Source: Candidatus Gottesmanbacteria bacterium | GTDB lineage: Bacteria > Patescibacteriota > Microgenomatia > UBA10105 > UBA927 | Reading direction: 5' to 3' | Assembly (NCBI GenBank): GCA_903821745.1 | Contig: CAIJMI010000005.1 | Coordinates: 135,802 to 199,801, forward strand | DNA length: 64,000 nucleotides | Part shown: positions 4,777-61,591 of the stretch, piece by piece | How the letters are laid out: each line of letters opens with the position of its first letter | Numbering within the stretch: the stretch's first letter is position 1 | The notes under the pieces: model-generated | What the model was told of the DNA's origin: nothing | The model's database searches: none | Seen by the model: only the letters and a program-made list of their open reading frames with translations | Made by a program: the position numbers and the translations under genes

Positions 4777-4801
4777 TACTGAAAAAATAAACAGTATTAT
4801 A

Positions 4802-15747: not shown

Positions 15748-16431
15748 ATGAATATCACGATTCTAACCCTTTTCCCGGACATGTTCCGAGGTCCATTTGA
15801 TACATCCATTATTAAACGAGCAATTGTAAAAGGTGCTGTGACCATTACGTACGTTGATATTCGGGATTTTGCAACAGACAAACATAAAAGCGTCGATGAA
15901 CATCCCTATGGTGGAGGAGCGGGTATGATTTTGCGCGTCGATATCGTCGCCCGCGCAATTGATTATGCAAAAAACCTCCATCCAAAAGAAAAAACGTACA
16001 GTATTCTTATGGATCCGCAAGGAAAACAATTTGTTCAGCCAATGGCAAAACACCTTGCCGCAACGGTCGAGCATCTCATTTTACTTTGTGGTCATTATGA
16101 AGGAGTTGATGAACGTATCAGAACACTTGTTGATGAGGAACTCTCAATCGGTGATTATGTATTAACCTGCGGAGAACTTCCGGCAATGGTCGTTGTAGAT
16201 GCCGTTGTTAGACTACTTCCAGGAGTGTTAAAAAAAGAAGGAGTAACGGCAAACGAATCCTTTGAAGAACATCTTCTCGAATATCCACAATATACGAAAC
16301 CTGACATGTTTAACGGTAATGCAGTTCCCGAAGTGCTTCGTTCTGGAGACCACAAAAGAATTAAAACGTGGCAAACACAGCAAGCGATTATCAAAACAAA
16401 AATGCGGCGACCAGACTTAATAAAAACTTAA
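15748..16431 (+). CDS. trmD: tRNA (guanine37-N1)-methyltransferase.
   Basis: SPOUT-fold TrmD motifs (DERI..., SIGDYVLTCGELPAMVVVDA). Confidence 0.93.
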   Translation: MNITILTLFPDMFRGPFDTSIIKRAIVKGAVTITYVDIRDFATDKHKSVDEHPYGGGAGMILRVDIVARAIDYAKNLHPKEKTYSILMDPQGKQFVQPMAKHLAATVEHLILLCGHYEGVDERIRTLVDEELSIGDYVLTCGELPAMVVVDAVVRLLPGVLKKEGVTANESFEEHLLEYPQYTKPDMFNGNAVPEVLRSGDHKRIKTWQTQQAIIKTKMRRPDLIKT

Positions 16432-17177
16432 GGAGAGAATGGATCAATAGTAACTGGCTCAGTTTGAATGATTGCACTTCCAGAACTGACCGGTGTCTCA
16501 GGAGTTAAGAGCGGAAAAGACGCTACCTTATCAAGAATTTCTATCTCCTCAGCACTGAGTGTTGTTAATGAATCAGTGACTTTACTTAATAGTTTTGGAT
16601 CAGGAACATAATAGGCATCCATTGCAAGTGTCGACTTCGTCACCCCCGTTTTATTATCAAACGTTAAATCAAAACTCCGTACACGAAAAAATCTTCGAAT
16701 CTTCACTGCGCTGTCAACAACATTACGTACCCGATCAATTGATCCTTCGATAATAATAGAAAAAGGAACAATATTCACTCCAATTTTTTTTTCGTCCGCG
16801 CTCAACGATCTGGCTGATTCTGTTGCAACCGAGCCAACATGCCCGAGAGATACACCGGTAACAGTCACCCCTTCCCGTGCTGTTAATGCATCAACGGTCG
16901 AAAACAATGAGCCTAATGACTTATCAGCAGGAACTGCTGAAATAGCAGCCTTTGCATAAGAGGTAAGTACAGTTACATCAAGTTCATCCAAAATTCGTTT
17001 TTTTGTTTCAAGAGTTTTGACGGTACTTCGAAGTGTTTGCGTTTCCTTAAACAGTTTTATCGTCATTTTTATGCCAGGAGATACGCCGACAAAAAAAGCG
17101 ATCAGGCAAAAAACAAGAATTGTTCCAGATACAACAAAACTTTGATACATCCGTAAAAATCTTCGTATAGTTCTCAT
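16428..17177 (-). CDS. Type IV pilus assembly protein, PilO-like.
   Basis: Single N-terminal TM then a periplasmic-type domain. Position immediately downstream of pilM-pilN. Confidence 0.5.
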   Translation of the reverse strand: MRTIRRFLRMYQSFVVSGTILVFCLIAFFVGVSPGIKMTIKLFKETQTLRSTVKTLETKKRILDELDVTVLTSYAKAAISAVPADKSLGSLFSTVDALTAREGVTVTGVSLGHVGSVATESARSLSADEKKIGVNIVPFSIIIEGSIDRVRNVVDSAVKIRRFFRVRSFDLTFDNKTGVTKSTLAMDAYYVPDPKLLSKVTDSLTTLSAEEIEILDKVASFPLLTPETPVSSGSAIIQTEPVTIDPFSP

Positions 17178-17182
17178 ACTAT

Positions 17183-17734
17183 CTACAAAACGGTTATATA
17201 CATAAATCCCATGGTTACCGTCCCGTCTTTATTTAAAATAATCGAGGTAATCGTTGAATTTTTAATCTTGTTCTCATTCGTTAACCGTAACACGGTTTTA
17301 ACAATCGTAATTGCTTCTTCCAGTGTTTTTGTTTCAATTGCGATATGCACTGAATTTCCATCACCCAATGAAAAAGAGGTCAAACGGGGCGGCGCTGCGA
17401 TAAGAAGTGTTGTATCAATATACGGCGCAATGGATACTTGAAACAACATAATTTTTTTAAGCGATGTTACACGAGAACGAAGTGCAAGAAGCATGGCTTC
17501 TTTCGTCATATTTTCAGAAACGGAAGCAAACAATGTTTTTCTTTGAGTATCAAGAGATTGCTGTTGCAAACGAAGAACAAAAAAAACACTGAGTGTGGCA
17601 ACACCAACACCCATAAGGATAAAAAGAAGAATATATCGGGCTGTACGAAGATATCGCTCTGCCATCGATAAAACAGGAGAGTAGGAAACCTGACTTTGAA
17701 ATAAATTAATCGGATTTTTTTCCATACATATCAC
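17183..17734 (-). CDS. Type IV pilus assembly protein, PilN-like.
   Basis: Short cytoplasmic N-terminus (INLF..), one TM, then a coiled-coil region. Follows pilM. Confidence 0.6.
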   Translation of the reverse strand: MICMEKNPINLFQSQVSYSPVLSMAERYLRTARYILLFILMGVGVATLSVFFVLRLQQQSLDTQRKTLFASVSENMTKEAMLLALRSRVTSLKKIMLFQVSIAPYIDTTLLIAAPPRLTSFSLGDGNSVHIAIETKTLEEAITIVKTVLRLTNENKIKNSTITSIILNKDGTVTMGFMYITVL

Positions 17735-18753
17735 GAACGCATCGCAAGTCCAACAGCAACTGCAAATAACGGTCCTTCGGTCGATAACACATTAAAGCGT
17801 GCATCTTTAACAACACCAACCCAAGGATTGGCAAGTTGCGTTTCAATAGTAACGCTTTCCGTCATATACGAAACGATTCCTGGTAATTTTGCACTGCCTC
17901 CAGATAAAACAATAGCCTCAAGACGTTCGTTTGCATATTTTTCTCCAAAAAATGCAATAGCACGTTTTACTTCATTCATAATCGTTGCCATAATCGGTTC
18001 CATAGCCGTAACTAACTTTCCTTCTAAAAGTCCTTTTTGTAATCCATATGTTTTTTTGTATTCTTCGGCCTGAACTACCGTAAAATCTAAGGATTGTGAT
18101 AGTGAACGTGACAACGCTTCACCACCTGCACTAATGGAACGCACAAAAGCGATAACGCCGTTATGAAGGATAGTCATATCCGTTGTTTGCGCTCCTATGG
18201 AAACCAGCATAACATTGTTCACCATAGCCATAGACTTACTAATAGCACGAGACCCCGCAATAATTTCAGTTTCAGCAAAAACTGGAACCAGATCTGCAAG
18301 TTCTAACATAGTCATGTACCGCTCAATTAATACTTTTGGCGCTGCAATAAGAAGAACTTCCATTTTTCCGGTTGTTGTAGCCTTTGCGTCCCGAAGAATT
18401 GTAAAATCCATATTTACCTGGTCCAACGGAAGTGGAATATATTGTTCCGCTTCCCACTGAATTGCAGAAGTCAGTTCACGATTAGAAAGTTGCGGCACTT
18501 CAATAACTCGGGTAAACACCTGAGATTCAGGAAGTGCAATATTTACTTTATCGGATTTTGCTCCCGTCTCTTTCACGAGTTGTTTAATCACAAATGCAAC
18601 AGCCTCTGCATCAGCACTGACCGTTGAAGACAGTGTTTTACTGGGAGTTGGCATACTGCCTGCTGCAAGAAGCGTTCGGACCTCTTTTTCATGTCCGATC
18701 TCAATCAGCTTAATACTATGAGTCCCGATATCAATTCCTAAAATACTTTCCAT
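17731..18753 (-). CDS. pilM: Type IV pilus assembly ATPase-fold protein PilM.
   Basis: Actin-like fold. N-terminal ILGIDIGTHSIKLIEI. Start placed at the Met of MESILGIDIG. Confidence 0.85.
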   Translation of the reverse strand: MESILGIDIGTHSIKLIEIGHEKEVRTLLAAGSMPTPSKTLSSTVSADAEAVAFVIKQLVKETGAKSDKVNIALPESQVFTRVIEVPQLSNRELTSAIQWEAEQYIPLPLDQVNMDFTILRDAKATTTGKMEVLLIAAPKVLIERYMTMLELADLVPVFAETEIIAGSRAISKSMAMVNNVMLVSIGAQTTDMTILHNGVIAFVRSISAGGEALSRSLSQSLDFTVVQAEEYKKTYGLQKGLLEGKLVTAMEPIMATIMNEVKRAIAFFGEKYANERLEAIVLSGGSAKLPGIVSYMTESVTIETQLANPWVGVVKDARFNVLSTEGPLFAVAVGLAMRS

Positions 18754-18769
18754 AGGCAGGGTATAAAAA

Positions 18770-19588
18770 CTAATGTATAAACGAATTTTGACTATAGACA
18801 CTATAATCAAATATCGAAGCCGGCCAAGGATATTGTCGTTTTACAACAATTTTCCTCGTAACTCCACCGTCTGTTCTTCCGGTAGACGTAATTTCAACAC
18901 CCTGTTTTGGTAGCGTTATATCCGTTCCAACCGGTGCAACCGTAAATGTTGTATTGCCATAAAAAGGGCGAAGCCGAACTAAAAGGGGAATACCACCAGG
19001 AAGGGTAATATTTTGTCTATACACATTCATCACTGTTCCACAGCTACCATTAATTTCTGTTATAGAAGAAAAATTGTTTTGTGGGCGAGAAGCAATATCA
19101 GGATCATATGCACCGCGACTTACCATATAAACTCCGGCTAATTTATAGTACACAATCACTTCTATCGCTGGAGTCGGAAAACCACTAAGTGCTGGTGTCC
19201 AACAAATATTTAAGGACGTCCCTTTATAATAATCTGATTCATCAATTGCATTTAAACTCGTATGCCCAACTAACCAAACAGATTCCACTTTTCCTACATT
19301 CGTTGTGGGAAGCGTGTATGTTCCTGTGGTGCCGCCAATAATCGTTGACGTTGATGAATAACTTACTCCGGGAGCATAATTTTGCACATTAGTAACGGTC
19401 CCTGTTTTCAACGCCGCTTCAAGTCCTGCCTCAGCAGCACTAAACGCACGAGCAGATTCTTCTAAATTCCGACTCATAGAAACATCTGTAACACTCCGAC
19501 CAATAAGAGAAAGTGCAATGGTTATTGCAATGGATAACACCAAGACAGTAATAAGCAATACCTGTCCATGGACTCTATATGTTCTCAT
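18770..19588 (-). CDS. PilX-N-like type IV pilus minor component.
   Basis: N-terminus GQVLLITVLVLSIAITIALSLIGRS resembles the PilX_N domain. No canonical G|FTLxE site. Confidence 0.5.
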   Translation of the reverse strand: MRTYRVHGQVLLITVLVLSIAITIALSLIGRSVTDVSMSRNLEESARAFSAAEAGLEAALKTGTVTNVQNYAPGVSYSSTSTIIGGTTGTYTLPTTNVGKVESVWLVGHTSLNAIDESDYYKGTSLNICWTPALSGFPTPAIEVIVYYKLAGVYMVSRGAYDPDIASRPQNNFSSITEINGSCGTVMNVYRQNITLPGGIPLLVRLRPFYGNTTFTVAPVGTDITLPKQGVEITSTGRTDGGVTRKIVVKRQYPWPASIFDYSVYSQNSFIH

Positions 19589-19634
19589 ATATCTAGTATA
19601 CGGTTAAGCTTGGAAAAGACGCAAGTTCTTTTCA

Positions 19635-20222
19635 TCAATTATTCCGCGTTGTACCGGTCGACTGAAATGTCTCTGTCGCACCTTCAAATACTCCTGTTGT
19701 TGCATTTTGCTGTCGCAAACGAAAGAAGATGGAAACAGACGTTACTTTATCACCAATTGATGTACAGACAAATTGAAGCGCTGCATCCTCGGTATCAGCA
19801 ATACCGCATCCTGCATCTCCAGCGTTAGCAACTAACGTCACATTTCCGCTTGAAATAAATGAAGTTGTTGAAAGTGTTGCGCTTTCTGAAGCAATACGAA
19901 ATACACTTCGTGTTGTATATTGGGTATCCGCTGCACATCGAAAGGTAGTTTCAATACCATCAATATTAACAATCGTTAATTCTGATAGGATTGTACCGGT
20001 ACAGGGTGAGGAAACACCTCGAGCATTTTGAATCATTCGTCGTACGGTTTCCATCGTTGCTGTTCCAGTTTGTTTCATTTCTTTTAACTGTTCCGTCTTT
20101 GTATTCAACCGAACCGTTGTAAACAAAACCTGAGCTATAATAACTGAAACAAGAGAAAGGACACCTGCTGATACCAAGAGCTCAAGAAGCGTAAACCCGT
20201 GTTTCTGTTGACAGATGGTCAT
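19635..20222 (-). CDS. Prepilin-type minor pilin (PilW/FimT-like).
   Basis: Class III signal peptide MTICQQKHG|FTLLELLV. Confidence 0.7.
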   Translation of the reverse strand: MTICQQKHGFTLLELLVSAGVLSLVSVIIAQVLFTTVRLNTKTEQLKEMKQTGTATMETVRRMIQNARGVSSPCTGTILSELTIVNIDGIETTFRCAADTQYTTRSVFRIASESATLSTTSFISSGNVTLVANAGDAGCGIADTEDAALQFVCTSIGDKVTSVSIFFRLRQQNATTGVFEGATETFQSTGTTRNN

Positions 20223-20223
20223 A

Positions 20224-20643
20224 TTATTTCCAATTCGTTAATGTGGTTTGTAGTATCACTTCTTTTTGTATTCCAGATTCAATCCAGGAAACAGTTGATA
20301 TCACTACAACCGATTGCGTTCCCACGTCATAGGAATACGTTAAAAGTCTGGTATACCGATTATCTATTTGCGCGCAAGAATTAGGCAAAATAACACCTGC
20401 TGCATCGGCGCAAAATGTTCCAGAACGCGCAAACACTGCCCAACCTGCATCTCGCTCTTTTCTCGCAAGTTCCAAGCCTTCCTGTGCATACTGTGTGGCG
20501 TATGTTCGCAATCTACTTGTTTCTGCATATCGAAGCGATGCCGTTGTTCCAACAATAAGTCCAGTCACTAACAAAACAACAACACCAAGTGTTACTACTG
20601 ATTCAACAAGCGATTGTCCATGATACACCATCTGTCTCGTCAT
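20224..20643 (-). CDS. Prepilin-type minor pilin (PilV-like).
   Basis: Leader MTRQMVYHG|QSLVESVV with Glu at +5 and a hydrophobic helix. Confidence 0.55.
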   Translation of the reverse strand: MTRQMVYHGQSLVESVVTLGVVVLLVTGLIVGTTASLRYAETSRLRTYATQYAQEGLELARKERDAGWAVFARSGTFCADAAGVILPNSCAQIDNRYTRLLTYSYDVGTQSVVVISTVSWIESGIQKEVILQTTLTNWK

Positions 20644-21146
20644 AAGGTATTATAGTCACTAATGACTCCTGATTGCGTCACGCTAACGGAATATGTTCCA
20701 CCTTTACCGGAAAGCACAATAATCTGATCTCCCGTTAAATCAGTAACTCCCGTCACCGTAAAAAAACGAATAATGGGGTATGTTCCGCCAAATGTTATAC
20801 CTGCCGGTAAATACTGATACGAAATTTCATTACTGGTATCAATGGCAGTCCCATTTTGTGAACATACCGGCTTCGTGGTATAGCAAGGACCCTTTCCATT
20901 ACAATTCGCTAAAAAATCAATATCATAACCTTCCAATGTCGAATCATTAACACATAAGGCTGTCTTTTGACCGGACGTTGCTTTTGTTCGTGCAAGACGT
21001 AAATCCGTCCGAAGCGTCAATCCTGCTTGTTTTACCTTTTGCTTATCCGTATACAAATTGTAATTTAAAATAGTGAGGACAGAAATAATAAGAATAACAC
21101 CAATCACAACGATAAGTTCAATGAGCGTAAATCCTGTATGTTTCAT
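20640..21146 (-). CDS. Prepilin-type pilin.
   Basis: Leader MKHTG|FTLIELIVVIGV. Confidence 0.75.
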   Translation of the reverse strand: MKHTGFTLIELIVVIGVILIISVLTILNYNLYTDKQKVKQAGLTLRTDLRLARTKATSGQKTALCVNDSTLEGYDIDFLANCNGKGPCYTTKPVCSQNGTAIDTSNEISYQYLPAGITFGGTYPIIRFFTVTGVTDLTGDQIIVLSGKGGTYSVSVTQSGVISDYNTL

Positions 21147-21568
21147 GGATTTCTTCGACCGTAGTTATACCCACCTAAATCTGTTACCCCGCAGGTTGTA
21201 TCGGTTGTGGTAGATGGTTCCATAGAAGCAGCGACACAATAGCCATAATATTGACCATTATTTATATCTGTTGCAACATACAAATAGGGAAGTCCTTTCG
21301 GATCTGTTGGAATCGCTGGCATATAGGTATCAATAACTCCCGATAAATTTGTTGCTGTATCAATACTTCCAGGATTCACATTTGGATAATAACCAAAATC
21401 CGCGCGGTATAATTCGAGTGCCGATCGCATTTGTTCGATGTCACTTCGCCGTTTCGTGTTTCTCGCGTTTTTGTTAATACTGGTATACGACACAACACCA
21501 ATTGCCGTAAGTATAGCAATAATTGCAATAGCAATTAATATTTCCATGAGCGTAAATCCTTTTTTCAC
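21143..21568 (-). CDS. Type IV pilin, PilA/GspG-like.
   Basis: KKG|FTLMEILIAIAIIAILTAI...ARNTKRRSDI. Start moved to GTG 21568, which has AAAGGA 7 nt upstream, instead of ATG 21616 that overlaps the upstream pilin. Confidence 0.72.
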   Translation of the reverse strand: MKKGFTLMEILIAIAIIAILTAIGVVSYTSINKNARNTKRRSDIEQMRSALELYRADFGYYPNVNPGSIDTATNLSGVIDTYMPAIPTDPKGLPYLYVATDINNGQYYGYCVAASMEPSTTTDTTCGVTDLGGYNYGRRNP

Positions 21569-21581
21569 AGTATGTCCTTTC

Positions 21582-21986
21582 TTATTGCCGTTGATGAATA
21601 CAATAAAAATTCCCATCCGTTACTGTTCCGTCACAATTTGATGCACTATTTCCACTTTCCACTTCAAGAGTCGCGCAAACACAATAGGAGGTTGTATCAG
21701 GACAAGACATGGAATACCCTTCCTTCGTTTTTGGGTCAAACGGATAGTTGTCCGGCAAATACATTGTATCAATAACACATCCATCCCCCGATGGGTAGCT
21801 TTGTGTATCAGCAAAGGACTGCTCAATTCCTTGTTGGACAGCTTTCAAATCTGAGACTCTTCTGCTATCCCGCGCTTTTTTTTGCATAGTCGTATATGAA
21901 GCTGTTGCTATAGCCGTTAAAATTGCGATAAGTGCAATAACAATAAGAAGTTCGATGAGTGAGAATCCGTTTTTACGCGTTACCAT
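21582..21986 (-). CDS. Type IV pilin PilA-like with a Cys-rich C-terminal region.
   Basis: MVTRKNG|FSLIELLIVIALIAILTAIA... Start at Met 21986 just after the pilD stop. The long upstream extension of the ORF-track call overlaps pilD. Confidence 0.75.
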   Translation of the reverse strand: MVTRKNGFSLIELLIVIALIAILTAIATASYTTMQKKARDSRRVSDLKAVQQGIEQSFADTQSYPSGDGCVIDTMYLPDNYPFDPKTKEGYSMSCPDTTSYCVCATLEVESGNSASNCDGTVTDGNFYCIHQRQ

Positions 21987-22738
21987 AATGTATTCCATAT
22001 ACGGAGTATTGGTTCGCTCCATAATAGGGCCGTACCCATTCCAAAAATAAGGAATGGTCCGAACGGAATATGACTTTTCAGCTTCCGCATCCGCCCTAAA
22101 ATTAGTATGACACCCACTATTGCACCCGTCAAGAAAGCAGTGTAAAACGCAATAATTAAATTCGGATAACCACAAACTAAACCAATGAGGAACGCAAGAA
22201 GAATGTCTCCATCTCCCATAGCTTTTCCTCTTGAAAAAAACCAGAGTAAGTAAAAAAAACTCGCTCCAATGCAAGCAGGCAATAATGCAAATGAAACAAG
22301 ATGGAGAAGGGGAACAGTAAGAAATAACCGTAAGACAATACCGACCCCCGCAACATACAACATTTCAATAGGAATAAATTCTGTTTTTAAATCCACAACA
22401 AAAATAACGAGAAATGAGCAAAATAAAATCAGCGAAGAAAGAAAGAACAATGGGGAAGTATGGGCAGCATAAAGCAGCATAAACCCAACACCCGTAACTA
22501 GTTCAATAAGCGGATATTGAAGAGAAATAGGTTTACGGCAACATCGACTCTTTCCTCCTTGAATAACCCAGGAAACAAAAGGGATAAGTTCGTACCATAC
22601 AAGTGTGCGCTTACAATAATCACAATGGGAACGGCCATGGACAACATCCTGACCAACGGGTAAACGATCAATAAGAACGTTTAAAAACGATCCAATTGCA
22701 CAACCAAAAATAAAAATAATAATACTCAATTCATTCAT
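21980..22738 (-). CDS. pilD: Prepilin peptidase / N-methyltransferase (A24 family).
   Basis: N-terminal CxxC...CxxC zinc motif, polytopic membrane protein, and A24 family Asp residues. Confidence 0.9.
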   Translation of the reverse strand: MNELSIIIFIFGCAIGSFLNVLIDRLPVGQDVVHGRSHCDYCKRTLVWYELIPFVSWVIQGGKSRCCRKPISLQYPLIELVTGVGFMLLYAAHTSPLFFLSSLILFCSFLVIFVVDLKTEFIPIEMLYVAGVGIVLRLFLTVPLLHLVSFALLPACIGASFFYLLWFFSRGKAMGDGDILLAFLIGLVCGYPNLIIAFYTAFLTGAIVGVILILGRMRKLKSHIPFGPFLIFGMGTALLWSEPILRIWNTLW

Positions 22739-22767
22739 ATCATCATTATACGTATTTACAAAAACAA

Positions 22768-24807
22768 TTACTGTTGATCATTTTGTATATCCTTAGGGAA
22801 TTTTTTCTCATAAAATGCCGCAAAGGGATCCACATCTGTATCGCTTCCACAAACCTGCTTCCATTTATAATATTGCCGAAGTATCGCACGATCATATCCC
22901 CATTTTTTAACAAATAATGAAAGAAGGATCTTCGCATCTCCACAACGATTATGTTGATACAAAATAACAATAGGATACAAATACGATTCCGGAACCACAT
23001 TCAACTCTAACGCTAATGCCTTCTGCAACTCATTTTCTATATCTGAAAGTGATAAATCTGCCAATGCCATTTCCCGAACAACTATAGAGCGGTGTTGCCC
23101 GTACACTCGTAGGACATCCGATATCATTGGTATTTGTTTATGAAACGGAATGAGCACTGTTGGCGGAACAAATTGTTCCCAGAGTGGTAACGTATCCTGA
23201 ACGATTTTCTTATGATCCAACGAAACAGTTGAGTCAGGAGAATAGAGAAATAATAACCCATGCGCAGTCCATTGACCCGGTAACAAATTCGATTCGGTAT
23301 CGCAAACCAGAGGATGAGTTGCGATATTTGCAGTCACAAATGATTCTATCAATAACCGGTAATCCGAATTTTTTGGTTCAGGAACAATCAAATCAGGATA
23401 TTGCAAACGAAGAAACGATCGGTAATGGATATTTCCAAACCACCGGAAAAAAACGAACCGAATATCCGGCCTCTTTTTCTGAATAAAGTAAGTATAGTAC
23501 ATCGCATACGTCGATGTGTCTTCAAACAAAAATAAAATTCCATTTTGTGGCGTACTTTTTGCGATGTCGGTTGCAAGCTGTTCCATGGATGTATCGGTAC
23601 GTAACAAAGAAAACGCTTGATAATTATGTTTCCACTGAGAAAATCCGAGAAGGACAAAAAGAAGAAATACCACCAGCATATAAATACGTTTTTTCGTCTT
23701 CAACACCATCGCAATACCATATGCAACACACACGGCAAGTAATTGATACGGAACGATAAAAAACCGTTCAGTCGTTCCAATTTGATAATTCAACAGTTGC
23801 GTAAATCCTGCTATAAAGAAAAATAGTATCCAGCTACAGAGCGATACGGTTATAAAATCATACAGATGTGCTGCACGTTTCCGTAATACAAAAAGGCCAA
23901 GCAATATAAAAACGACGCCAACTAAAGAAAAATCGCGAACAATAAATTGAAAAAACGTATAGACATTCAATATTCTATTGAGAAACATTGGGGGACCGCC
24001 TGCTGTCGCCTGAAATGTCCCATATGATGCGCGCGTTACAAGTCGAATAAATCCTTCTCGTGTTGCTGCATGCTCGATATCAAATAATGTTCCACGAAAT
24101 GAAACAATGGGAGCATATATATAGGGAAGAAATCCTAATAAACCAAACAGAAATATTTTCCACCATGCATGAACAAGATGGGGAAGAACATCACGTCGTC
24201 TCCAAAAAATAAACATGATTGCTGGAAGGATAGTAAAAAGAATAGCGTGATGATGCGTCAATGCAATCCCTGTCCAAAAAGCTAAAAAGAGAAGTTGTGT
24301 TTGTTTCCCTTCTTCAAACCATGCAACCAGTTGATCTAACAATACGATGCTCATAAAACTATAGAGTCCGAACACCTCCTGCGATATAGCGTTGAGCCAA
24401 ACGGGACTGGTAAATCCAAATAAAACTGCTGCCACCGTGGAAGCAAAAAATGATGTTGTACATCGATAACATAGTCGCCACAAAAAATATAACGCCAGAG
24501 CGCTGGGGAGAGAAGAAAGAAAACAAGCGCGCCATGCAACAGTTCCCCATGAAAGTGCATGAATGAACAATCCGGATAAAAAGGTATAAAGTGGATAGCC
24601 AGGAGGGTGAGGGATACCCCACACATACGAGGCAAGTGTTACATCTCCTGCATCACCCCCATAAATACTATGCATCTGCATAGATATATATATCCATGCA
24701 AAACAGAAAGCTATAATGCTTGGAATACCATAAACCGCGAAAGTTACCAATCGCGGTTTAGGTTGAATCATTTGTTTCACAACGATTATTGAACACACCA
24801 GAAACAA
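22768..24807 (-). CDS. Large polytopic GT-C-fold membrane protein (DUF2723 / PMT-like glycosyltransferase family), embedded in the pilus locus.
   Basis: About 12 or more TM helices. The first-loop acidic motif (YGGDAGDV), then GIPHPPGYPLYTF, is typical of the DUF2723 / protein O-mannosyltransferase-like superfamily. Confidence 0.55.
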   Translation of the reverse strand: MFLVCSIIVVKQMIQPKPRLVTFAVYGIPSIIAFCFAWIYISMQMHSIYGGDAGDVTLASYVWGIPHPPGYPLYTFLSGLFIHALSWGTVAWRACFLSSLPSALALYFLWRLCYRCTTSFFASTVAAVLFGFTSPVWLNAISQEVFGLYSFMSIVLLDQLVAWFEEGKQTQLLFLAFWTGIALTHHHAILFTILPAIMFIFWRRRDVLPHLVHAWWKIFLFGLLGFLPYIYAPIVSFRGTLFDIEHAATREGFIRLVTRASYGTFQATAGGPPMFLNRILNVYTFFQFIVRDFSLVGVVFILLGLFVLRKRAAHLYDFITVSLCSWILFFFIAGFTQLLNYQIGTTERFFIVPYQLLAVCVAYGIAMVLKTKKRIYMLVVFLLFVLLGFSQWKHNYQAFSLLRTDTSMEQLATDIAKSTPQNGILFLFEDTSTYAMYYTYFIQKKRPDIRFVFFRWFGNIHYRSFLRLQYPDLIVPEPKNSDYRLLIESFVTANIATHPLVCDTESNLLPGQWTAHGLLFLYSPDSTVSLDHKKIVQDTLPLWEQFVPPTVLIPFHKQIPMISDVLRVYGQHRSIVVREMALADLSLSDIENELQKALALELNVVPESYLYPIVILYQHNRCGDAKILLSLFVKKWGYDRAILRQYYKWKQVCGSDTDVDPFAAFYEKKFPKDIQNDQQ

Positions 24808-25319
24808 TTAATACCTGTTGCATCTTTACTCTTACAAGCGGTTGCTCCTGACGTTACGGTATTTTCTACTCCTGACTGATCATATTTTGTTGCTGGATCA
24901 ACCTGGAATGATTTTGAACCTGGCTGATAACACACACGTACTTCCACTGACGACGTTGGAGATGAAGGCAGATAAGTAACAAACACTTTGTCAAGTTGCC
25001 CACTGTAAATCTCTTTAAAATTCGATTTCATTTCTCCTGCTGCCATCATGTTTGATAATGCAGTATTAATTGTTGCTGCACTAAGATTGGTGGAACTGAA
25101 CGTGGTTGTCTGATCTGTCCATGGCATTTTATTTGTTGTTGCGTAATACCGCAACACTGCCGTTTGAACTTGATTGACCAAATCTCGTGTTCCTGTATCT
25201 GTGCCCTTTTTCAATTGTTCAAATGGATCAAGTGCACCAATAAGACCGATAGCGAGAGCTCCTAATAAGGCGATAACGATAAGAAGCTCGACGAGCGTAA
25301 AACCTTTTTGTCTTTTCAT
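24786..25319 (-). CDS. Type IV pilin, candidate major pilin.
   Basis: Leader MKRQKG|FTLVELLIVIALLGALAI. Strongest SD in the locus (GGAGGTGATAACAAT-ATG). Own upstream intergenic region. C-terminal Cys pair (CKSKDATGINCFWC). Confidence 0.75.
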   Translation of the reverse strand: MKRQKGFTLVELLIVIALLGALAIGLIGALDPFEQLKKGTDTGTRDLVNQVQTAVLRYYATTNKMPWTDQTTTFSSTNLSAATINTALSNMMAAGEMKSNFKEIYSGQLDKVFVTYLPSSPTSSVEVRVCYQPGSKSFQVDPATKYDQSGVENTVTSGATACKSKDATGINCFWCVQ

Positions 25320-25398
25320 ATTGTTATCACCTCCTTACAATAAAATCTCTTCTCTTATTACTGTATAAGAACGTCTCTTCAATTGTCAACACAAATAC

Positions 25399-26607
25399 CT
25401 ATTTAAATTGCGATGTCAAATTATAAATTGGCGTTATGACCGATATGACAATAAAACCAATACCAACTCCCAAAACGACCATAATAATTGGTTCAATTGC
25501 CGTGGTGAGTCCTTTCACCATTCCTTCTGTTTCCATTTGAAAATATTTAGAAATTTTCAATAGAGTGTCATCCAATTTTCCTGTTTCTTCTCCAACCTTC
25601 ACCATTTGGGACACAATAGGTGGAAATTCTTTATGCGCAGCAAACATATCACCAAGTGGAAACCCTTTCTCAACCTTTTTTGCAATATCTTCAATAGCGT
25701 TTTGAAACAAAATATTATTCAGTGACCCTTTTAAAATACGTAGTGCATCAAGAATATGAATACCGGACCCAATTAACATCGAAAGTGTTCTCGTAAACTC
25801 AACAAGAATCAGCTTTTGCTGTAAAACACCAAAAATAGGAAGTTTTAATACGAGTGAATCCAACAAATATTGTCCGGATTCTGTCTTTTTCCACCGAGCA
25901 AACCCTAATGAAACACCACCGAGAAGAATAATCATGATCCACCATTTATATAAAATAAAGTTTGATAATCCGATTAACAATTTTGTAGACCAGGGAAGCT
26001 CAATACCAAAATCTTTGTATAAATCCGTAAGTCTTGGCATAACAACGATCATCATAATGATAACAACCGCTATCATACCAACAACGATAATGGCAGGATA
26101 AATCAATGCACCAACAACTTTATTCCGAAATTCCCGTTGTCCCTCAAGTGAATCGGCAAGCTGTACTAACACTTTATCCAGTTGTCCTGACGCCTCTCCA
26201 GCACGGACAAGCGAGATATAAATATTAGAAAAATATTGCGGATATTTGGATAAAGCATCGCCTAAATTTCCACCACCAACGATATTTCGTTCAATTTCCC
26301 CCAATACTTGTGCAAGTTGGGGATTTGGCGATTGGGTCTTTAAAATACCAAGTGAATCTGGAATAGAAAGACCCGATGTAACCATGGTCGATAACTGACG
26401 AGTAAAATTCACGATGTCAGAAAAACTCACTTTTTGCATTTTGGTAAATGCGGAAGATAAGGCTTTTTCCTGTGTTTGGGATAGAGAAACAACAAACAAC
26501 TGTTTTTCTTTTAAGAGTTTAATCGCTTGATCCTGACTACTTGCTTCAACCAACCCCGTTGCTTCTTTTCCATCCGGGGAGAATGCTTTGTATTTAAAAA
26601 ATGCCAT
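25399..26607 (-). CDS. pilC: Type IV pilus inner-membrane platform protein (GspF/PilC family).
   Basis: Two GspF repeats. Three-TM topology typical of PilC. Confidence 0.9.
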   Translation of the reverse strand: MAFFKYKAFSPDGKEATGLVEASSQDQAIKLLKEKQLFVVSLSQTQEKALSSAFTKMQKVSFSDIVNFTRQLSTMVTSGLSIPDSLGILKTQSPNPQLAQVLGEIERNIVGGGNLGDALSKYPQYFSNIYISLVRAGEASGQLDKVLVQLADSLEGQREFRNKVVGALIYPAIIVVGMIAVVIIMMIVVMPRLTDLYKDFGIELPWSTKLLIGLSNFILYKWWIMIILLGGVSLGFARWKKTESGQYLLDSLVLKLPIFGVLQQKLILVEFTRTLSMLIGSGIHILDALRILKGSLNNILFQNAIEDIAKKVEKGFPLGDMFAAHKEFPPIVSQMVKVGEETGKLDDTLLKISKYFQMETEGMVKGLTTAIEPIIMVVLGVGIGFIVISVITPIYNLTSQFK

Positions 26608-26613
26608 ATGAAA

Positions 26614-27669
26614 TTATCCTCGCTTCAGCAATCTACCAATGTCTTCTGGCCGAAGAGCATAGGCTGTTGCGACATCCACACTAATGTTCCCATCGTTTAC
26701 TGCCTTGGCAAGCGCCGCTTCCAAAGTCATCATACTAAATTCAGCAGATGTTTGTATCACGTTATCCAACTGATGTGTTTTCCCCTCACGGATGACTGAC
26801 CGAACAGCAGGTGTTGCAGTCATAACTTCACATACTGCAATTAACCCACCTTTAATTGCTGGAACCAATCGTTGGGAAATAACACCTTCAAGAACATTAG
26901 ATAACTGTAACCGTATCTGCTGTTGTTGATGCTCAGGGAATACATCGATAATACGATCAACGGTTTGGGCGGCTGAATTCGTATGAAGCGTTGCCAAGAC
27001 CAAATGTCCAGTTTCAGCAATGGTAATTGCAGCTGCAATAGTTTCATAATCACGCATTTCACCAATAAGCACAACATCCGGATCTTCACGGAGAACACTT
27101 CGAAGTGCAATGGACCAGGAATGGGTATCACCGTGCATCTCGCGCTGCGAAACGATCGACATTGCCGATGGATATATATATTCAACAGGATCTTCTATCG
27201 TTACAATATGTGATGCTTTCGTTTGATTAATGCGATCAATCATTGCAGCAAGAGTTGTTGATTTTCCTTGTCCTGTTGGACCGGTAACCAAAATCAGACC
27301 CTGACGAAGTTTCACAAAATCATGGAGCACTTCAGGAAGTCCTAACTCTTCAATGGAACGAATTTTTTCCGGAATATACCGAAATGCTCCTGCTGGAGTC
27401 CCACGCTGATTATATAAATTGACACGAAATCGCCCGGTTGGTGCAACATACGAAAAATCAACTTCTTTATTGGTCAAAAATAATTCTTTTTGTTCCTCCG
27501 AACAAATAGACAAAAGAAGCTCATGTACATCTGATTCCGAAAGTACGGCCTGTCCACTGATCATCTGTAATTTTCCCGATACACGAAGCATAGGGGGATA
27601 TCCAACGATCAGATGAATATCCGATGCTACAATACGCGATGCTTCTGCACATAATTCCTGCATGTTCAT
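26614..27669 (-). CDS. pilT: Twitching motility retraction ATPase PilT.
   Basis: Walker A GPTGQGKST, Asp box and His box of the PilT/GspE family. About 350 aa with no N-terminal GSPII_E_N domain. Confidence 0.9.
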   Translation of the reverse strand: MNMQELCAEASRIVASDIHLIVGYPPMLRVSGKLQMISGQAVLSESDVHELLLSICSEEQKELFLTNKEVDFSYVAPTGRFRVNLYNQRGTPAGAFRYIPEKIRSIEELGLPEVLHDFVKLRQGLILVTGPTGQGKSTTLAAMIDRINQTKASHIVTIEDPVEYIYPSAMSIVSQREMHGDTHSWSIALRSVLREDPDVVLIGEMRDYETIAAAITIAETGHLVLATLHTNSAAQTVDRIIDVFPEHQQQQIRLQLSNVLEGVISQRLVPAIKGGLIAVCEVMTATPAVRSVIREGKTHQLDNVIQTSAEFSMMTLEAALAKAVNDGNISVDVATAYALRPEDIGRLLKRG

Positions 27670-27680
27670 AATTGCTTCTC

Positions 27681-29402
27681 CTAATCCTGCGCAACGCGCA
27701 ACACTTCTTCAATTGATGTTAGGCCTTCCAATGCTTTCATATAGCCATCTTGTTTCATGGTTATCATTCCTTCAGAAATTGCTTGTGTTTCAATATCTTT
27801 CATGGTCGCACGAGACAAAGTCAACCGACTAATGGCATCTGTGACGGCAAATACTTCAAATATACCAAGTCTTCCATGATACCCTGTGCCTGCACAGGTA
27901 GAACAGGACACATCACTAACCGTTCCTTTTCCGCGATACAATTTTATTGGTTTATCTTTTTGAAGCAGGGGTCCCAACACTGCACGGACATCATCTTGTA
28001 TCGGCTGTTCTGGAATATATTCTTCTTTACAGGTTTCGCAAATTTTTCGTGCAATACGTTGACCAACAACTGCGTTAAGTGCCGATGCGATAAGGAATGG
28101 CTCAGCCCCAAGATCTATAAGCCGTGGAATTGCACCTGAGGCGTTATTTGTGTGCAGCGTTGAAAACACCAAATGACCGGTAAGTGCAGCCTGTACAGCC
28201 AGTTCCGTTGTTTCCTGATCCCTAATTTCTCCAACAAGAATAATATTTGGATCCTGACGCAAAAATGATCGTAAACCCGTTGCAAACGTTAATCCTGCTG
28301 GTGCGTTCACTTGGACTTGATTCACCCCTGCAATCTGATACTCAACCGGATCTTCCAGCGTCATTATATTAACCCGAGCATTATTGAGTTTATTCAGCAC
28401 AGAATACAATGTCGTCGTTTTTCCGGAACCAGTTGGTCCGGTCACAAGAATAATGCCGTGTGGCCGGGTAATGGATGTTTCCAAATTTTTTAATGCAAGA
28501 CCGCGAAGCCCAAGTTCCGGCAAGGAGGGAACCCCGCCAGATTTTTTCAAAAGCCGCATAACGATTTTTTCTCCAAACACTGTGGGAAGAGAGGATACAC
28601 GAAGATCAACCTCTTCATCTCCCATTTTAAAATTAAACCGTCCATCCTGTGGAATACGCCGTTCATCAATTTTCATATCGCCTAAAATTTTAATACGCGA
28701 TATGACGGCTTCATGGAGTCGTCTTGGAAGCAAGAGTCGTTCTTGCAAAATCCCATCCACCCGATACCGAACACGCGTTTCCGCATCCTGTGGTTCAATA
28801 TGAACATCTGATGCACGAAGCCGGATTGCCTGCTCAAGAATAGCAGAAACGATTTGTGCAATAGGAGCTTCCCGAATCACTTCATTTAAATGTCCCGCTT
28901 CATAAGTCTTTATATCAGACGGTGCTGTTTCTTTGAGCGCTGCAGTAACATCTTCTCCCAAATGCTGTGTGTACAAATTATTAATTGCCGTAAGTATCTT
29001 TTCTTTTACTGCCATATACGCAGTAATCGTTTTGTTTGTTTTCTTCTCCAAAAAATCAATAATCTGCGCATCGAGTGGATCTGCCATTGCAACTAAGAGC
29101 GTATTCGTCTTAGTATCAAATTCAAACGGCACAAGAATATATTTTCTTGCAACCGCCTCTGGAACATAGGTGATCAATTCCGGAGAAAAAGCGAGGGAGG
29201 AAACGTCAGCAAAGGGAATATTGAGGACTGCTGCCCGCGCACGAAGGATATCTTCTTCTTTTACTAATCGTTTTTGAAGCAGCAATGATTCGACGGATTC
29301 ACCAACATTTAAGGATTGAAGCAGTATTTCATCTGCCTGTTCCTTCGAAAGGTTTTTATTTTGAACCAGCTTATTTAATAATTCTTGGGCAGCGGCAGGC
29401 AT
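27681..29402 (-). CDS. pilB: Type IV pilus assembly ATPase PilB (GspE family).
   Basis: N-terminal GSPII_E_N domain, Walker A GPTGSGKTT, and a tetracysteine motif (CETC...CSTC). Confidence 0.92.
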   Translation of the reverse strand: MPAAAQELLNKLVQNKNLSKEQADEILLQSLNVGESVESLLLQKRLVKEEDILRARAAVLNIPFADVSSLAFSPELITYVPEAVARKYILVPFEFDTKTNTLLVAMADPLDAQIIDFLEKKTNKTITAYMAVKEKILTAINNLYTQHLGEDVTAALKETAPSDIKTYEAGHLNEVIREAPIAQIVSAILEQAIRLRASDVHIEPQDAETRVRYRVDGILQERLLLPRRLHEAVISRIKILGDMKIDERRIPQDGRFNFKMGDEEVDLRVSSLPTVFGEKIVMRLLKKSGGVPSLPELGLRGLALKNLETSITRPHGIILVTGPTGSGKTTTLYSVLNKLNNARVNIMTLEDPVEYQIAGVNQVQVNAPAGLTFATGLRSFLRQDPNIILVGEIRDQETTELAVQAALTGHLVFSTLHTNNASGAIPRLIDLGAEPFLIASALNAVVGQRIARKICETCKEEYIPEQPIQDDVRAVLGPLLQKDKPIKLYRGKGTVSDVSCSTCAGTGYHGRLGIFEVFAVTDAISRLTLSRATMKDIETQAISEGMITMKQDGYMKALEGLTSIEEVLRVAQD

Positions 29403-59295: not shown

Positions 59296-59604
59296 ATGCA
59301 AGCCGGAATTCATCCAACATGGTTTGAAGACGCAAAAGTGACGTGTGCCTGTGGCAACACGTTTACTGTTGGCGCATCAAAAGCAGAAATCCGTGTCGAT
59401 ATCTGTTCCAAATGCCACCCGTTCTTCACGGGAGAAATGAAGTTTGTTGACACCATGGGTCGCGTTGAAAAATTCCAACAGAAACAAAAAGAAGCAGCTG
59501 CAAAAGTGTCTATGCTTATGGAAAAGAAAAAGAAAAAGAAAGAACACGAAGAACAACTCCGCAATCCAAAATCACTCCGTGAGATGCTCATGGGAGCAAA
59601 GTAA
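59296..59604 (+). CDS. rpmE: Ribosomal protein L31 with a ~35-aa Lys/Glu-rich C-terminal extension.
   Basis: [20 protein letters not shown]...[14 protein letters not shown] is canonical L31 with its zinc ribbon. ATG 59296. The ORF-track TTG at 59266 is rejected. Confidence 0.88.
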
Positions 59605-59623
59605 AAAAATTCGAGTACAGACT

Positions 59624-60322
59624 ATGAACCCCAATATTGTTACGCTTGAATTCCGCGCAGGCCCTGGAGGCGAAGAGGCAAAAATCTGGTCCATGGATCT
59701 CATGCGTATGTACACGCGGTATGCCAATATGTTAGGCTGGAAAGTCGAAGAAATTGCAGACAATGCAATCCGCATAAAAGGTGAAGGAGCATTTACAAAA
59801 CTCCAGTATGAAGCAGGCACCCACAGGGTTCAGCGAATACCTACCACAGAGCGTCAAGGACGAATCCACACATCAACCGCAACCGTCGCAGCACTTCCTG
59901 AAATTCCAGAAGCAGATATTGAAATCCATCCGGAAGATATTACCTGGGAATTTTACCGGGCAGGAGGCAAAGGCGGACAAAATGTCAATAAAGTTAGCTC
60001 TGCAGTCAGACTTCGCCATATGCCAACAGGACTCGTCGTCACCTGTCAATCAGAACGGGATCAGTTTCAAAATCGACAGGTTGCATTATCCCTTCTCCGG
60101 GCAAAACTTTGGGAAAAACGGGAAATGGAACAATCAGCAGCACTATCAGAACAGCGGTCAATCATTGGTCGAGGGATGCGGGCGGAAAAAATAAGAACGT
60201 ACAATTTTCCTCAAGACCGCGTGACAGATCACCGAATCAACAAATCATTCCATAACATTGATGGAATCATGGATGGAAAACTACAGAAAATAACGGAATC
60301 AATGACCGAATTACTTAAGTAA
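59624..60322 (+). CDS. prfA: Class I peptide chain release factor, RF1-like, lacking N-terminal domain 1.
   Basis: PxT-type tripeptide motif region RIPTTERQGRIHTS (RF1 has RVPATESQGRIHTS). GGQ motif (GGKGGQNVNKV). Begins at the equivalent of E. coli RF1 residue ~108. The upstream in-frame ORF-track extension is a K-rich sequence overlapping rpmE. Confidence 0.8.
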   Translation: MNPNIVTLEFRAGPGGEEAKIWSMDLMRMYTRYANMLGWKVEEIADNAIRIKGEGAFTKLQYEAGTHRVQRIPTTERQGRIHTSTATVAALPEIPEADIEIHPEDITWEFYRAGGKGGQNVNKVSSAVRLRHMPTGLVVTCQSERDQFQNRQVALSLLRAKLWEKREMEQSAALSEQRSIIGRGMRAEKIRTYNFPQDRVTDHRINKSFHNIDGIMDGKLQKITESMTELLK

Positions 60323-61591
60323 TAATTCAATTGCCTTCAGAAGTTGTGCATCATGTGTCGCCTCTGGAGAATCCAGTTTCACTTCAACATCCGGTGTAAT
60401 GCCTTTTTTGTGAATCCAATCACCATTTGGCAACAACCATTTTCCTGTGGTGATATGCACGCTCGCTCCTCCGGACAAATCCTGTGGTGTTTGCACGGAA
60501 CCTTTTCCAAACGACGTGACTCCAACAATAGTTGCCCGTTTATGATCTTTAAGCGCTCCAGCAACGATTTCAGCCGCAGATGCACTTCCCTTGTTAATTA
60601 AGACCACAAGTGGAATATCCGTTAGTTTTCCTTTTCGGTCAATAGACAGTGCTTCTTTTGATCCATCACTGTTTGTTTGGGTGACAACGATGCCGCTTTT
60701 CAAAAATTCACTGGCAATAAATACAGCCCCATCCAGATATCCACCTGGATTATTTCGTAAATCAAATACCAATCCTTTTGCACCCTGTGCTGCTGTTTTT
60801 GCAATGATATCGTCAACCGCCGTTAACCATTCTTCATTGGTTCGATCGCCAAACCGGGAAAGGTAGATATAACCAACAGCGTTCTTGTTTGAAAATAACG
60901 CTGGTGTTACAACACCTGATATTTCAGTAATGTCTGCCGGCGTCTTCACCCAATATTCGACCGATGGAACAACTATGGCATCGCGAATAATCGTGACGTC
61001 TTCAGGTGTTTTTGACTTATCATGCAAAATCGTCAATGTCACTTTCGTTCCTTTTGTTCCACGAATTTTGGTAACAGCCTGATTTAAGGTCCACCCAACT
61101 GTTTCATCACCATTTACTTTCATGATCCAATCCATTGATTTTAATCCCACCTTTTCAGCAGGCGATCCCTTCAGAGGTGCTTGGATAATAATTTTATTAT
61201 CAATAAGCCCGAGTTGTGCACCAATTCCTTGGAAGGATCCACCAATATCTTCCTTAAATTCCGTATTCTCTTTCGGAGTCAAAAAGGTGGTGTAAGGATC
61301 ATCCAAAGAATTCACCATGCCAGAAATTGCCCCATAGACCATTTTCTGTGCATCTATGCTCGGTGCATCGATATAATAGGTACGAAGCCGTTGCCACACA
61401 TCCCAAAACAGAGAAAAATCGACTTTTACGTTGGAGGGTACGTCCTGATTAATAACAGCTGTTGCAGAAAGTGTTGGAGCCTTGGAAAAGACGCGGTTCT
61501 CTCCCAAACGATATCCAATGCCACCAATTAACACAGAAACAGCGATAGCAAGGATAATGGTACGGATTTTTGAAAACGGCAGAGTCTTCAT
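60311..61591 (-). CDS. C-terminal processing peptidase (S41, CtpA-like) with a PDZ domain.
   Basis: S41 catalytic region NKGSASAAEIVAGALKD. PDZ domain. N-terminal TM. Confidence 0.88.
   Translation of the reverse strand: MKTLPFSKIRTIILAIAVSVLIGGIGYRLGENRVFSKAPTLSATAVINQDVPSNVKVDFSLFWDVWQRLRTYYIDAPSIDAQKMVYGAISGMVNSLDDPYTTFLTPKENTEFKEDIGGSFQGIGAQLGLIDNKIIIQAPLKGSPAEKVGLKSMDWIMKVNGDETVGWTLNQAVTKIRGTKGTKVTLTILHDKSKTPEDVTIIRDAIVVPSVEYWVKTPADITEISGVVTPALFSNKNAVGYIYLSRFGDRTNEEWLTAVDDIIAKTAAQGAKGLVFDLRNNPGGYLDGAVFIASEFLKSGIVVTQTNSDGSKEALSIDRKGKLTDIPLVVLINKGSASAAEIVAGALKDHKRATIVGVTSFGKGSVQTPQDLSGGASVHITTGKWLLPNGDWIHKKGITPDVEVKLDSPEATHDAQLLKAIELLLK

Follow-up and report, generated by a model that had tools for sequence, protein, structure and literature searches.

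Is a bacterial class-I release factor that lacks one of its four domains still an ordinary terminator of translation, and how would it leave the ribosome? This question is raised by the prfA gene of a 64,000-nucleotide stretch of DNA (the window) from contig CAIJMI010000005.1 of a Candidatus Gottesmanbacteria bacterium, a member of the Candidate Phyla Radiation (CPR). RF1 and RF2, two release factors (RFs), have been reviewed as nearly universally conserved four-domain proteins (PMC6514570). The RF1 encoded in the window contains domains 2, 3, and 4 only. We consider it probable that this protein is the product of an ordinary prfA gene that evolution has trimmed to the core that functions as a class-I release factor.

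The sequence reads as an open reading frame (ORF) of 232 amino acids (aa), from an ATG to a TAA codon, which aligned with residues ~106-349 of Escherichia coli RF1. In Pfam, the RF-1 domain (PF00472) was complete (profile positions 2-116 of 116, E-value of 6.3e-38) whereas PCRF was matched at profile positions 102-194 of 194 only, corresponding to its C-terminal half. The match to the NCBIfam prfA models started at model position 106/113 and ran to the end. The scores remained below the curated equivalog cut-offs (312.9 versus 423.25 bits for TIGR00019 and 318.1 versus 400 for NF001859) because the N-terminal third of the protein is missing. The prfA models were the best-ranking NCBIfam models, about 100 bits above prfB (TIGR00020, 212.5 versus a cut-off of 370), and the protein harbors the motif PTT, not the SPF motif of RF2. 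The prfH model (TIGR03072) scored 77.5 versus a cut-off of 166.65 and covered the GGQ domain alone; the gene upstream is rpmE, not the RtcB-like gene associated with RFH. The ArfB model (NF006718) scored 53.4 versus a cut-off of 100 and covered 36 residues around GGQ, in a protein in which domains 2 and 4 are present, as is not the case of ArfB and ICT1.

In alignments to solved RF1 structures, residue 7 of the protein corresponded to residue 112 of E. coli RF1 and to residue 89 of Thermotoga maritima RF1, with an identity of ~45-55% from this position onward to the C-terminus. The N-terminal helical domain 1 (~105 residues) of the four-domain architecture is therefore absent, and the start codon is located at the former linker between domains 1 and 2, which reads (D/N)PN in RF1 labelled WWE3 and Saccharibacteria. 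Two additional parts of the protein are shorter than in canonical RF1. The β-hairpin of domain 2 has ~10 residues fewer than in solved RF1s (predicted strands at residues 40-45 and 48-52), a deletion also present in the Roizmanbacteria type and in the sequences P0123, P0125, and P0126, but not in the Nomurabacteria type. The C-terminus is ~10 residues short of that of E. coli RF1. The original prediction, made from the letters of the window, was an RF1-type factor starting at the equivalent of E. coli residue ~108 and retaining a codon-recognition region with a PxT-like motif and the GGQ domain. Pfam, NCBIfam, and structure alignments all agree with the first part, and both motifs were read in the sequence. 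The expectation that profile searches would detect the RF-1 domain and no PCRF domain was correct for RF-1 only: the Pfam PCRF model spans domains 1 and 2, and the half that corresponds to domain 2 is still matched.

To locate the residues involved in decoding and catalysis, positions of the protein were converted to Thermus thermophilus RF1 numbering with the offsets of the solved-structure alignments. G15 and E18 are the equivalents of G116 and E119, Q70 of Q181, P73-T74-T75 (the PTT motif, positions 59840-59848) of residues 184-186, I81-H82-T83 of residues 192-194, and G117-G118-Q119 of the GGQ motif at 228-230. All mapped stop-codon and release residues were found in invariant or near-invariant columns of a 67-sequence alignment in which truncated and full-length RF1s were mixed. 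T. thermophilus G116, E119, Q181, the PxT motif at 184-186, and residues 192-194 are reported to be the stop-codon contacts, G116 and E119 (G15 and E18 here) reading the first base (Laurberg et al. 2008). According to this correspondence, every known UAA- and UAG-reading residue is kept. The AlphaFold2 model of the protein had a mean pLDDT (predicted local distance difference test) of 85.8 and superposed on ribosome-bound, accommodated RF1 with query-normalised TM (template modeling) scores of 0.80-0.84 and a root-mean-square deviation of 3.0-3.5 Å. The scores were 0.56-0.59 against the compact crystal form of RF1, a difference that we do not use to interpret the predicted conformation itself. 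In the model, domains 2, 3, and 4 are complete.

The truncation is shared by the relatives of the gene. The identical protein is encoded by 11 independently assembled contigs with the same neighboring genes. Among 5.8 billion proteins searched, more than 120 clusters were recovered at 74-100% identity, of 229-238 aa save for three shorter, possibly partial sequences. Named members were assigned to Candidatus Gottesmanbacteria or Patescibacteria and designated 'release factor-like protein' or 'peptide chain release factor 1'. In the representatives of four Gottesmanbacteria species (L002-L005), an in-frame stop codon is located 1-12 codons 5' of the conserved ATG, and the start ATGAAYNCNRAY is kept in these loci as well as in L083 and L084. 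The upstream spacers of the four representative loci and of two contigs of 1.22 Mb and 408 kb were unalignable and mostly AT-rich. A 292-aa reading of the gene, from a TTG codon at 59444, was rejected since it overlaps the 3' end of rpmE in another frame; the in-frame stops of the relatives and the unalignable spacers indicate that it is a mere open frame. Comparison with a relative at 92% identity gave proportions of nonsynonymous (pN) and synonymous (pS) differences of 0.053 and 0.708, respectively, hence a ratio of substitution rates (dN/dS) of ~0.03, with synonymous sites near saturation; more distant pairs likewise showed low pN and high pS. This pattern points to strong purifying selection on a prfA gene devoid of domain 1, which is fixed across the Gottesmanbacteria-type clade. 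The original prediction had stated that there was no room for domain 1 upstream, the sole extension overlapping rpmE in another frame, and this was borne out by the stops that close the frame in relatives. The truncation that it proposed to look for in related genomes is found in the above clusters, and the upstream start or assembly error that it named as a possible refutation is excluded by the 11 contigs, the clade-wide length, and the upstream stops.

The position of the gene indicates orthology with other RF1 genes. The order hisS-EamA-rpmE-prfA-ctpA-rpsR-ssb-rpsF-ychF is kept throughout the clade, including in the 1.22-Mb contig. More broadly, rpmE is located directly 5' of the RF1 gene in most of the CPR loci that were fetched, including those encoding RF1 with an N-terminal domain, and this adjacency is common to loci labelled WWE3, Saccharibacteria, Paceibacterota, and Taylorbacteria, among others. 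No RF paralog was detected in the window by tblastn with the window RF1, and comparison of two lists of RF matches revealed no contig carrying a second RF gene (the list of parcubacterial RF2 was set aside as belonging to another lineage). Since the gene holds the rpmE-prfA slot shared with other CPR bacteria, it is most likely an ordinary orthologous prfA, rather than an ArfB- or RFH-like paralog. A different arrangement was observed in Roizmanbacteria, in which rpmE is downstream of a prfA gene encoding 235 aa (hisS-prfA-rpmE-rplJ-rplL-gyrB; L123/L124, 6001-8210; L020, 10730-12194).

To place the truncation in a wider context, RF1 sequences were taken from 80 species-representative genomes, and examples were scanned with Pfam. 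RF1 labelled Bacteroidota, Chlorobi, Ignavibacteria, and Bradyrhizobiaceae had ~104-105 residues before the first β-strand (PCRF matched at 3-194). Most CPR RF1s were of 312-342 aa, with 69-89 such residues (PCRF matched from ~40). Four groups had only 0-20 residues at this position: the Gottesmanbacteria type (232 aa), the Roizmanbacteria type (228-239 aa), a C-type (P0126, P0435, and P0453; 232-240 aa), and the Nomurabacteria type (263-278 aa), which has a ~20-residue remnant beginning with MDWQEWKK and includes one member labelled Woesebacteria. In representatives of the Roizmanbacteria, C-type, and Nomurabacteria groups, an in-frame stop is located 4-14 codons 5' of the start. The nearest sequence outside the clade, P0123, is 60% identical to the window protein and has 303 aa, including an N-terminal helical segment of 73 residues. 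P0123 and P0454 (303-304 aa) have the domain-2 hairpin deletion in common with the window protein. P0123 looks like an evolutionary intermediate, because it shares this deletion while keeping the N-terminal segment.

A tree of the shared RF1 region was built by neighbor-joining, a simple method, with 200 bootstrap replicates. The support was 100% for the Gottesmanbacteria type and 86% for its grouping with P0123; an exclusive pair formed by the Gottesmanbacteria and Roizmanbacteria types was recovered in 3% of the replicates. The C-type (100%) never grouped with the Microgenomates-type clade, and the Nomurabacteria-type short forms were located within a 100% clade that also contained forms of 322-323 aa. 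These groupings suggest that domain 1 was lost independently at least four times, a count that is provisional. Reduction of domain 1 also concerns RF2. Among the 120 best clusters, all of the Parcubacteria type, RF2 (P0271-P0390) mostly had 292-295 aa. In comparison to solved RF2, the parcubacterial RF2 of locus L045 (1767-2654) lacks ~23 N-terminal residues and an internal stretch of ~47 residues of domain 1; its gene comes directly after two tRNA genes, has no programmed +1 frameshift site, and is followed by ftsE-ftsX-like ORFs. The reduced CPR factors keep an N-terminal remnant of ~70-80 residues in RF1 and ~46 residues in RF2. All the CPR RF1 and RF2 factors examined scored below the curated equivalog cut-offs, and their database names are 'release factor-like', 'PCRF domain-containing', or 'hypothetical'. 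Three RF1 entries, P0122 (477 aa), P0124 (481 aa), and P0391 (374 aa), contained a stretch of ~90-170 residues that is internally duplicated in tandem, the copies being nearly identical. They are probably metagenome assembly artefacts rather than true fusions.

The potential partners of RF1 were also searched for. The 66 ORFs of the window end with TAA (45), TGA (15), or TAG (6), indicating that the standard code is used, with UGA as a stop, and that both an RF2-type activity and RF1 are needed. No RF2, RF3, or PrmC was found in the window by tblastn with the window RF1 and a parcubacterial RF2 or by scans for the DTPGH, NPPY, and SPF motifs, nor in the 9-10 kb past either window end and ~415 kb of orthologous loci of relatives. 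The corresponding genes (prfB, prfC, and prmC) and rplK, encoding L11, were thus absent from a single neighborhood seen many times. For this reason, the absence of RF2 and RF3 says little about the whole genome. In particular, prmC is not present downstream of prfA, as the NPPY methyltransferase motif does not occur in the window. A stand-alone domain 1 ORF was not found in the window by tblastn with five CPR and canonical N-terminal domains (best E-value of 0.23). In Roizmanbacteria, the genes adjacent to the truncated prfA encode ordinary-looking L10 (179 aa) and L7/L12 (143 aa, with both Pfam domains), indicating that the stalk proteins were not lost along with domain 1.

Several alternatives to a trimmed but ordinary RF1 were considered. 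The gene might be an artefact or be decaying, owing to a wrong start, an indel or assembly error, or pseudogenization. The in-frame ORF does reach the TTG at 59444, and the profile scores are below the equivalog cut-offs, but the extra stretch runs over rpmE in a different frame and is interrupted by stop codons in relatives, the same protein is encoded by 11 independent contigs, its length is kept in more than 120 clusters, dN/dS is low, and the fold is predicted with confidence. This explanation has a negligible probability and is refuted as far as sequence data allow. A specialized paralog, acting in ribosome rescue or quality control like RFH or ArfB while a four-domain RF1 encoded elsewhere performs routine termination, is a more serious candidate: RFH and ArfB show that relatives of RF1 devoid of domain 1 with special roles do exist, and the search for a second RF1 was confined to the prfA neighborhood. 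We nevertheless regard it as unlikely since the gene occupies the rpmE-prfA slot of RF1s that have an N-terminal domain, and since PxT and all RF1 decoding residues are kept, whereas the decoding elements of RFH and ArfB are altered or absent. In addition, the scores with the prfH and ArfB models are far below the cut-offs, the window and its flanks revealed no paralog, and the nearest outside relative, P0123, is an RF1 with a reduced N-terminal domain.

Two further explanations concern the reading of UGA and the fate of domain 1. The protein could be the sole class-I factor of the cell, an omnipotent minimal RF reading the three stop codons. The TGA codons that terminate 15 of the 66 ORFs do require a reader for UGA, and no RF2 was detected in any Gottesmanbacteria-type DNA examined, all of it from the prfA neighborhood. 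This limited search gives little weight to the absence of RF2, RF2 exists in other CPR bacteria, and the decoding loop is that of canonical RF1 (PTT, Q70, I-H-T), with no SPF features of RF2; we therefore give the omnipotent factor hardly any credence. Alternatively, domain 1 might be supplied in trans by a small helical, ribosomal, or translation protein. Baranov et al. proposed a similar contribution for the gene upstream of prfH (PMC1586002), and L31 of the window has an unusual Lys/Glu-rich tail, both arguments being indirect. The window contains no match to the five N-terminal domains used as queries, and compensation of the loss of domain 1 by the L31 tail was ruled out because the tail is also found where RF1 keeps an N-terminal domain (WWE3 loci L006, L016, and L017). 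The location of L31, far from the A site and the L11 region of the ribosome, also counts against its taking over the role of domain 1. A supply in trans is thus very unlikely.

According to the explanation that we favor, in which an ordinary prfA product was reduced to its functional core, the truncated RF1 would enter the A site when it holds UAA or UAG, recognizing the codon through the tip of helix α5, the PxT loop, and the Q/I-H-T residues. The GGQ motif would be swung into the peptidyl-transferase center, and the peptide would be released as by canonical RF1. Without domain 1, there would be no contact with the N-terminal domain of L11 and no bridge to RF3; exit from the post-release ribosome would have to occur without RF3-driven recycling, either spontaneously or via ribosome rotation or RRF and EF-G. 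The loss of domain 1 would be the end point of a CPR-wide trend in which this domain shrank in RF1 as well as in RF2. Published work is in agreement with this mechanism. As summarized in PMC1586002, Mora et al. 2003 found that codon recognition and peptide release do not require domain 1 in vitro, that an N-terminally truncated RF1 works in vivo, and that domain 1 is needed for the stimulation of nucleotide exchange on RF3. The prfC gene can be dispensed with and is absent from small genomes (PMC1586002). Cryo-electron microscopy (cryo-EM) showed that helices α2 and α3 of domain 1 touch the N-terminal domain of L11 and that α2 bridges to domain 3 of RF3 (PMC3677378). Many ribosome-bound RF1 chains of the PDB were deposited without domain 1 (chain lengths of 242-259), which fits a peripheral location and poor ordering of domain 1 on the ribosome.

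In view of its conserved residues and predicted fold, the protein is most likely a fully functional UAA/UAG release factor, with binding and catalysis similar to those of canonical RF1. The altered recycling or loss of RF3 dependence foreseen in the original prediction would be a reasonable inference from the E. coli truncation and cryo-EM work. Two considerations weigh against this reading. A second full-length RF1 could be encoded elsewhere in the genome, outside the prfA neighborhood that was searched, although we consider this to be unlikely. In addition, E. coli RF1 is reportedly inactive on ribosomes lacking L11 (W. Tate, reviewer comment, PMC1586002), so that losing the contact with L11 is not obviously neutral and compensatory changes are to be expected. 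On balance, we lean slightly to a general proposal for the CPR. Domain 1 may have been stripped repeatedly in these bacteria: RF1 would have lost all of it in Gottesmanbacteria, Roizmanbacteria, and two or more further clades, and RF1 and RF2 would have lost part of it elsewhere. Routine termination would then proceed without the L11-domain 1 contact or RF3-driven recycling, with natural 'minimal' factors probably co-adapted with a modified stalk base.

The coordinates of the features of the locus are listed in Table 1. The L31 protein encoded upstream of prfA has 102 aa versus the usual ~70, because of a Lys/Glu-rich C-terminal extension of ~35 residues, which is shared by loci of Gottesmanbacteria and WWE3 and by certain other CPR loci, whereas many Parcubacteria-type loci lack it. 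The lack of a Shine-Dalgarno sequence before prfA is normal in this DNA, as a motif of this type precedes only ~8 of the 43 confidently placed starts of the window.

Table 1. Coordinates of features of the prfA locus in the window and of a leader found in related loci.
Feature	Position	Strand	Description
prfA without domain 1	59624..60322 (including TAA)	+	232-aa RF1, domains 2, 3, and 4 only
Start codon and first β-strand, MNPNIVTLEFRA	59624..59659	+	ATG at the former domain 1/domain 2 linker
GPGGEE, tip of helix α5	59660..59677	+	G15, G16, and E18 in invariant columns
Shortened β-hairpin of domain 2, residues 40-52	59741..59779	+	Gaps relative to 2fvo and 6orl
Codon-recognition loop, QRIPTTERQGRIHTS	59831..59875	+	Read from sequence; Q70, R71, P73, T75, E76, R80, T83, and S84 invariant
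GGQ (G117-G118-Q119), peptidyl-tRNA hydrolysis motif	59972..59980	+	Read from sequence; invariant columns
rpmE, ribosomal protein L31, 102 aa	59296..59604	+	Pfam PF01197, 2.4e-26
rpmE-prfA spacer, 19 nt	59605..59623	+	No Shine-Dalgarno sequence
S41 (CtpA-like) peptidase gene, convergent	60311..61591	-	12-nt overlap between its 3' end and that of prfA
Mini-ORF and hairpin leader, P0119 sub-lineage	L086 7846-7972; L087 motif 9956; L088 4657-4783; L090 7175-7316; L122 ~7480-7585		Outside the window

A distinct organization of the rpmE-prfA interval was observed outside the window, in the P0119 sub-lineage of Gottesmanbacteria. A mini-ORF of 19 codons with a TGA stop is located between the two genes and encodes a repeat of residues 1-19 of the truncated RF1, MNTNIAIMEFR[Q/G]G[T/A]GGDE[A/S]. 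It is followed by a conserved hairpin, the stem of which encloses the TGA codon (consensus of -21.7 kcal/mol, with 3 compensatory pairs in 3 sequences), and then by the real prfA start. About 10 of the 19 codons differ between the mini-ORF and the 5' end of prfA, nearly all synonymously, which suggests a constraint at the peptide level. The mini-ORF and hairpin, for which no Rfam match was found, may form a termination-sensing leader. Translational bypassing was considered but is not supported since the candidate take-off and landing codons mismatch in L122. The L088 locus, otherwise identical to L086, has a 29-nt deletion in the 5' end of the real prfA (4783-4800) that would shift the ATG out of frame; a strain variant and an assembly error are both possible explanations. 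Elsewhere in the window, a type IV pilus cluster on the reverse strand (16428-29402) encodes ATPases resembling PilB and PilT, a PilC-like platform protein, and a prepilin peptidase, contains several ORFs for pilins or pseudopilins that carry N-terminal methylation motifs, and includes a TMEM260-like glycosyltransferase gene. Type IV pili are a known trait of CPR bacteria.

The contribution of domain 1 and RF3 to termination is still debated and has so far been studied only via artificial truncations in E. coli. RF1s that have naturally and recurrently lost domain 1 provide a system for asking whether the contact with L11 is needed for binding or accuracy, how a class-I factor leaves the ribosome without RF3, and which parts of the ribosome co-evolve. 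The loss matters in practice as well. The prfA and prfB genes belong to common bacterial marker sets. Owing to their scores below the cut-offs and their vague names, CPR factors would be counted as missing where these genes serve as markers. No description of CPR RF1 or RF2 naturally devoid of domain 1 was found in the full-text literature searched, which did not extend to subscription journals, and the release-factor evolution review of Burroughs and Aravind (PMC6514570) is silent on such factors.

Comparison with known systems indicates that the protein is a natural variant of a well-known factor and not a new kind of system. It is ~45-55% identical over domains 2, 3, and 4 to canonical RF1 (TIGR00019/NF001859; E. 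coli, T. thermophilus, T. maritima), with which it shares PxT, the G and E residues of the α5 tip, Q181, I192-H193-T194, GGQ, the long helix α7, and the switch-loop region. Its gene occupies the rpmE-adjacent slot of other CPR bacteria, and its predicted fold superposes on ribosome-bound RF1. It differs from canonical RF1 by the loss of domain 1, by the shorter hairpin and C-terminus, and by a switch loop reading GRGMRAE instead of GxGDRSE. Other CPR RF1 (~312-342 aa) and RF2 (~292-295 aa) display the same trimming trend and the shared rpmE-prfA synteny, but retain an N-terminal remnant. The closest design is that of the engineered truncated E. coli RF1 and RF2, which according to the summary of Mora et al. 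2003 in PMC1586002 also consist of domains 2-4 only, read stop codons, and release the peptide in vitro, the truncated RF1 supporting growth; this indicates that the design is workable. The latter proteins are artificial and were placed in a host possessing RF3 and a co-adapted L11, whereas the factor described here is natural, fixed in its lineage, under selection, and trimmed in domain 2 as well. RFH (prfH), a natural class-I homologue, is likewise devoid of domain 1 while keeping GGQ, but its 'anticodon' region is divergent, an RtcB-like gene always precedes its own, and it acts as an accessory factor; in the window protein, the loop is canonical, and the gene follows rpmE. ArfB (YaeJ) and mitochondrial ICT1 and C12orf65 are reduced GGQ members of the same superfamily that lack domains 2/4 and use a basic C-terminal tail on empty A sites, whereas domains 2/4 of the window protein are complete and a tail of this kind is absent.

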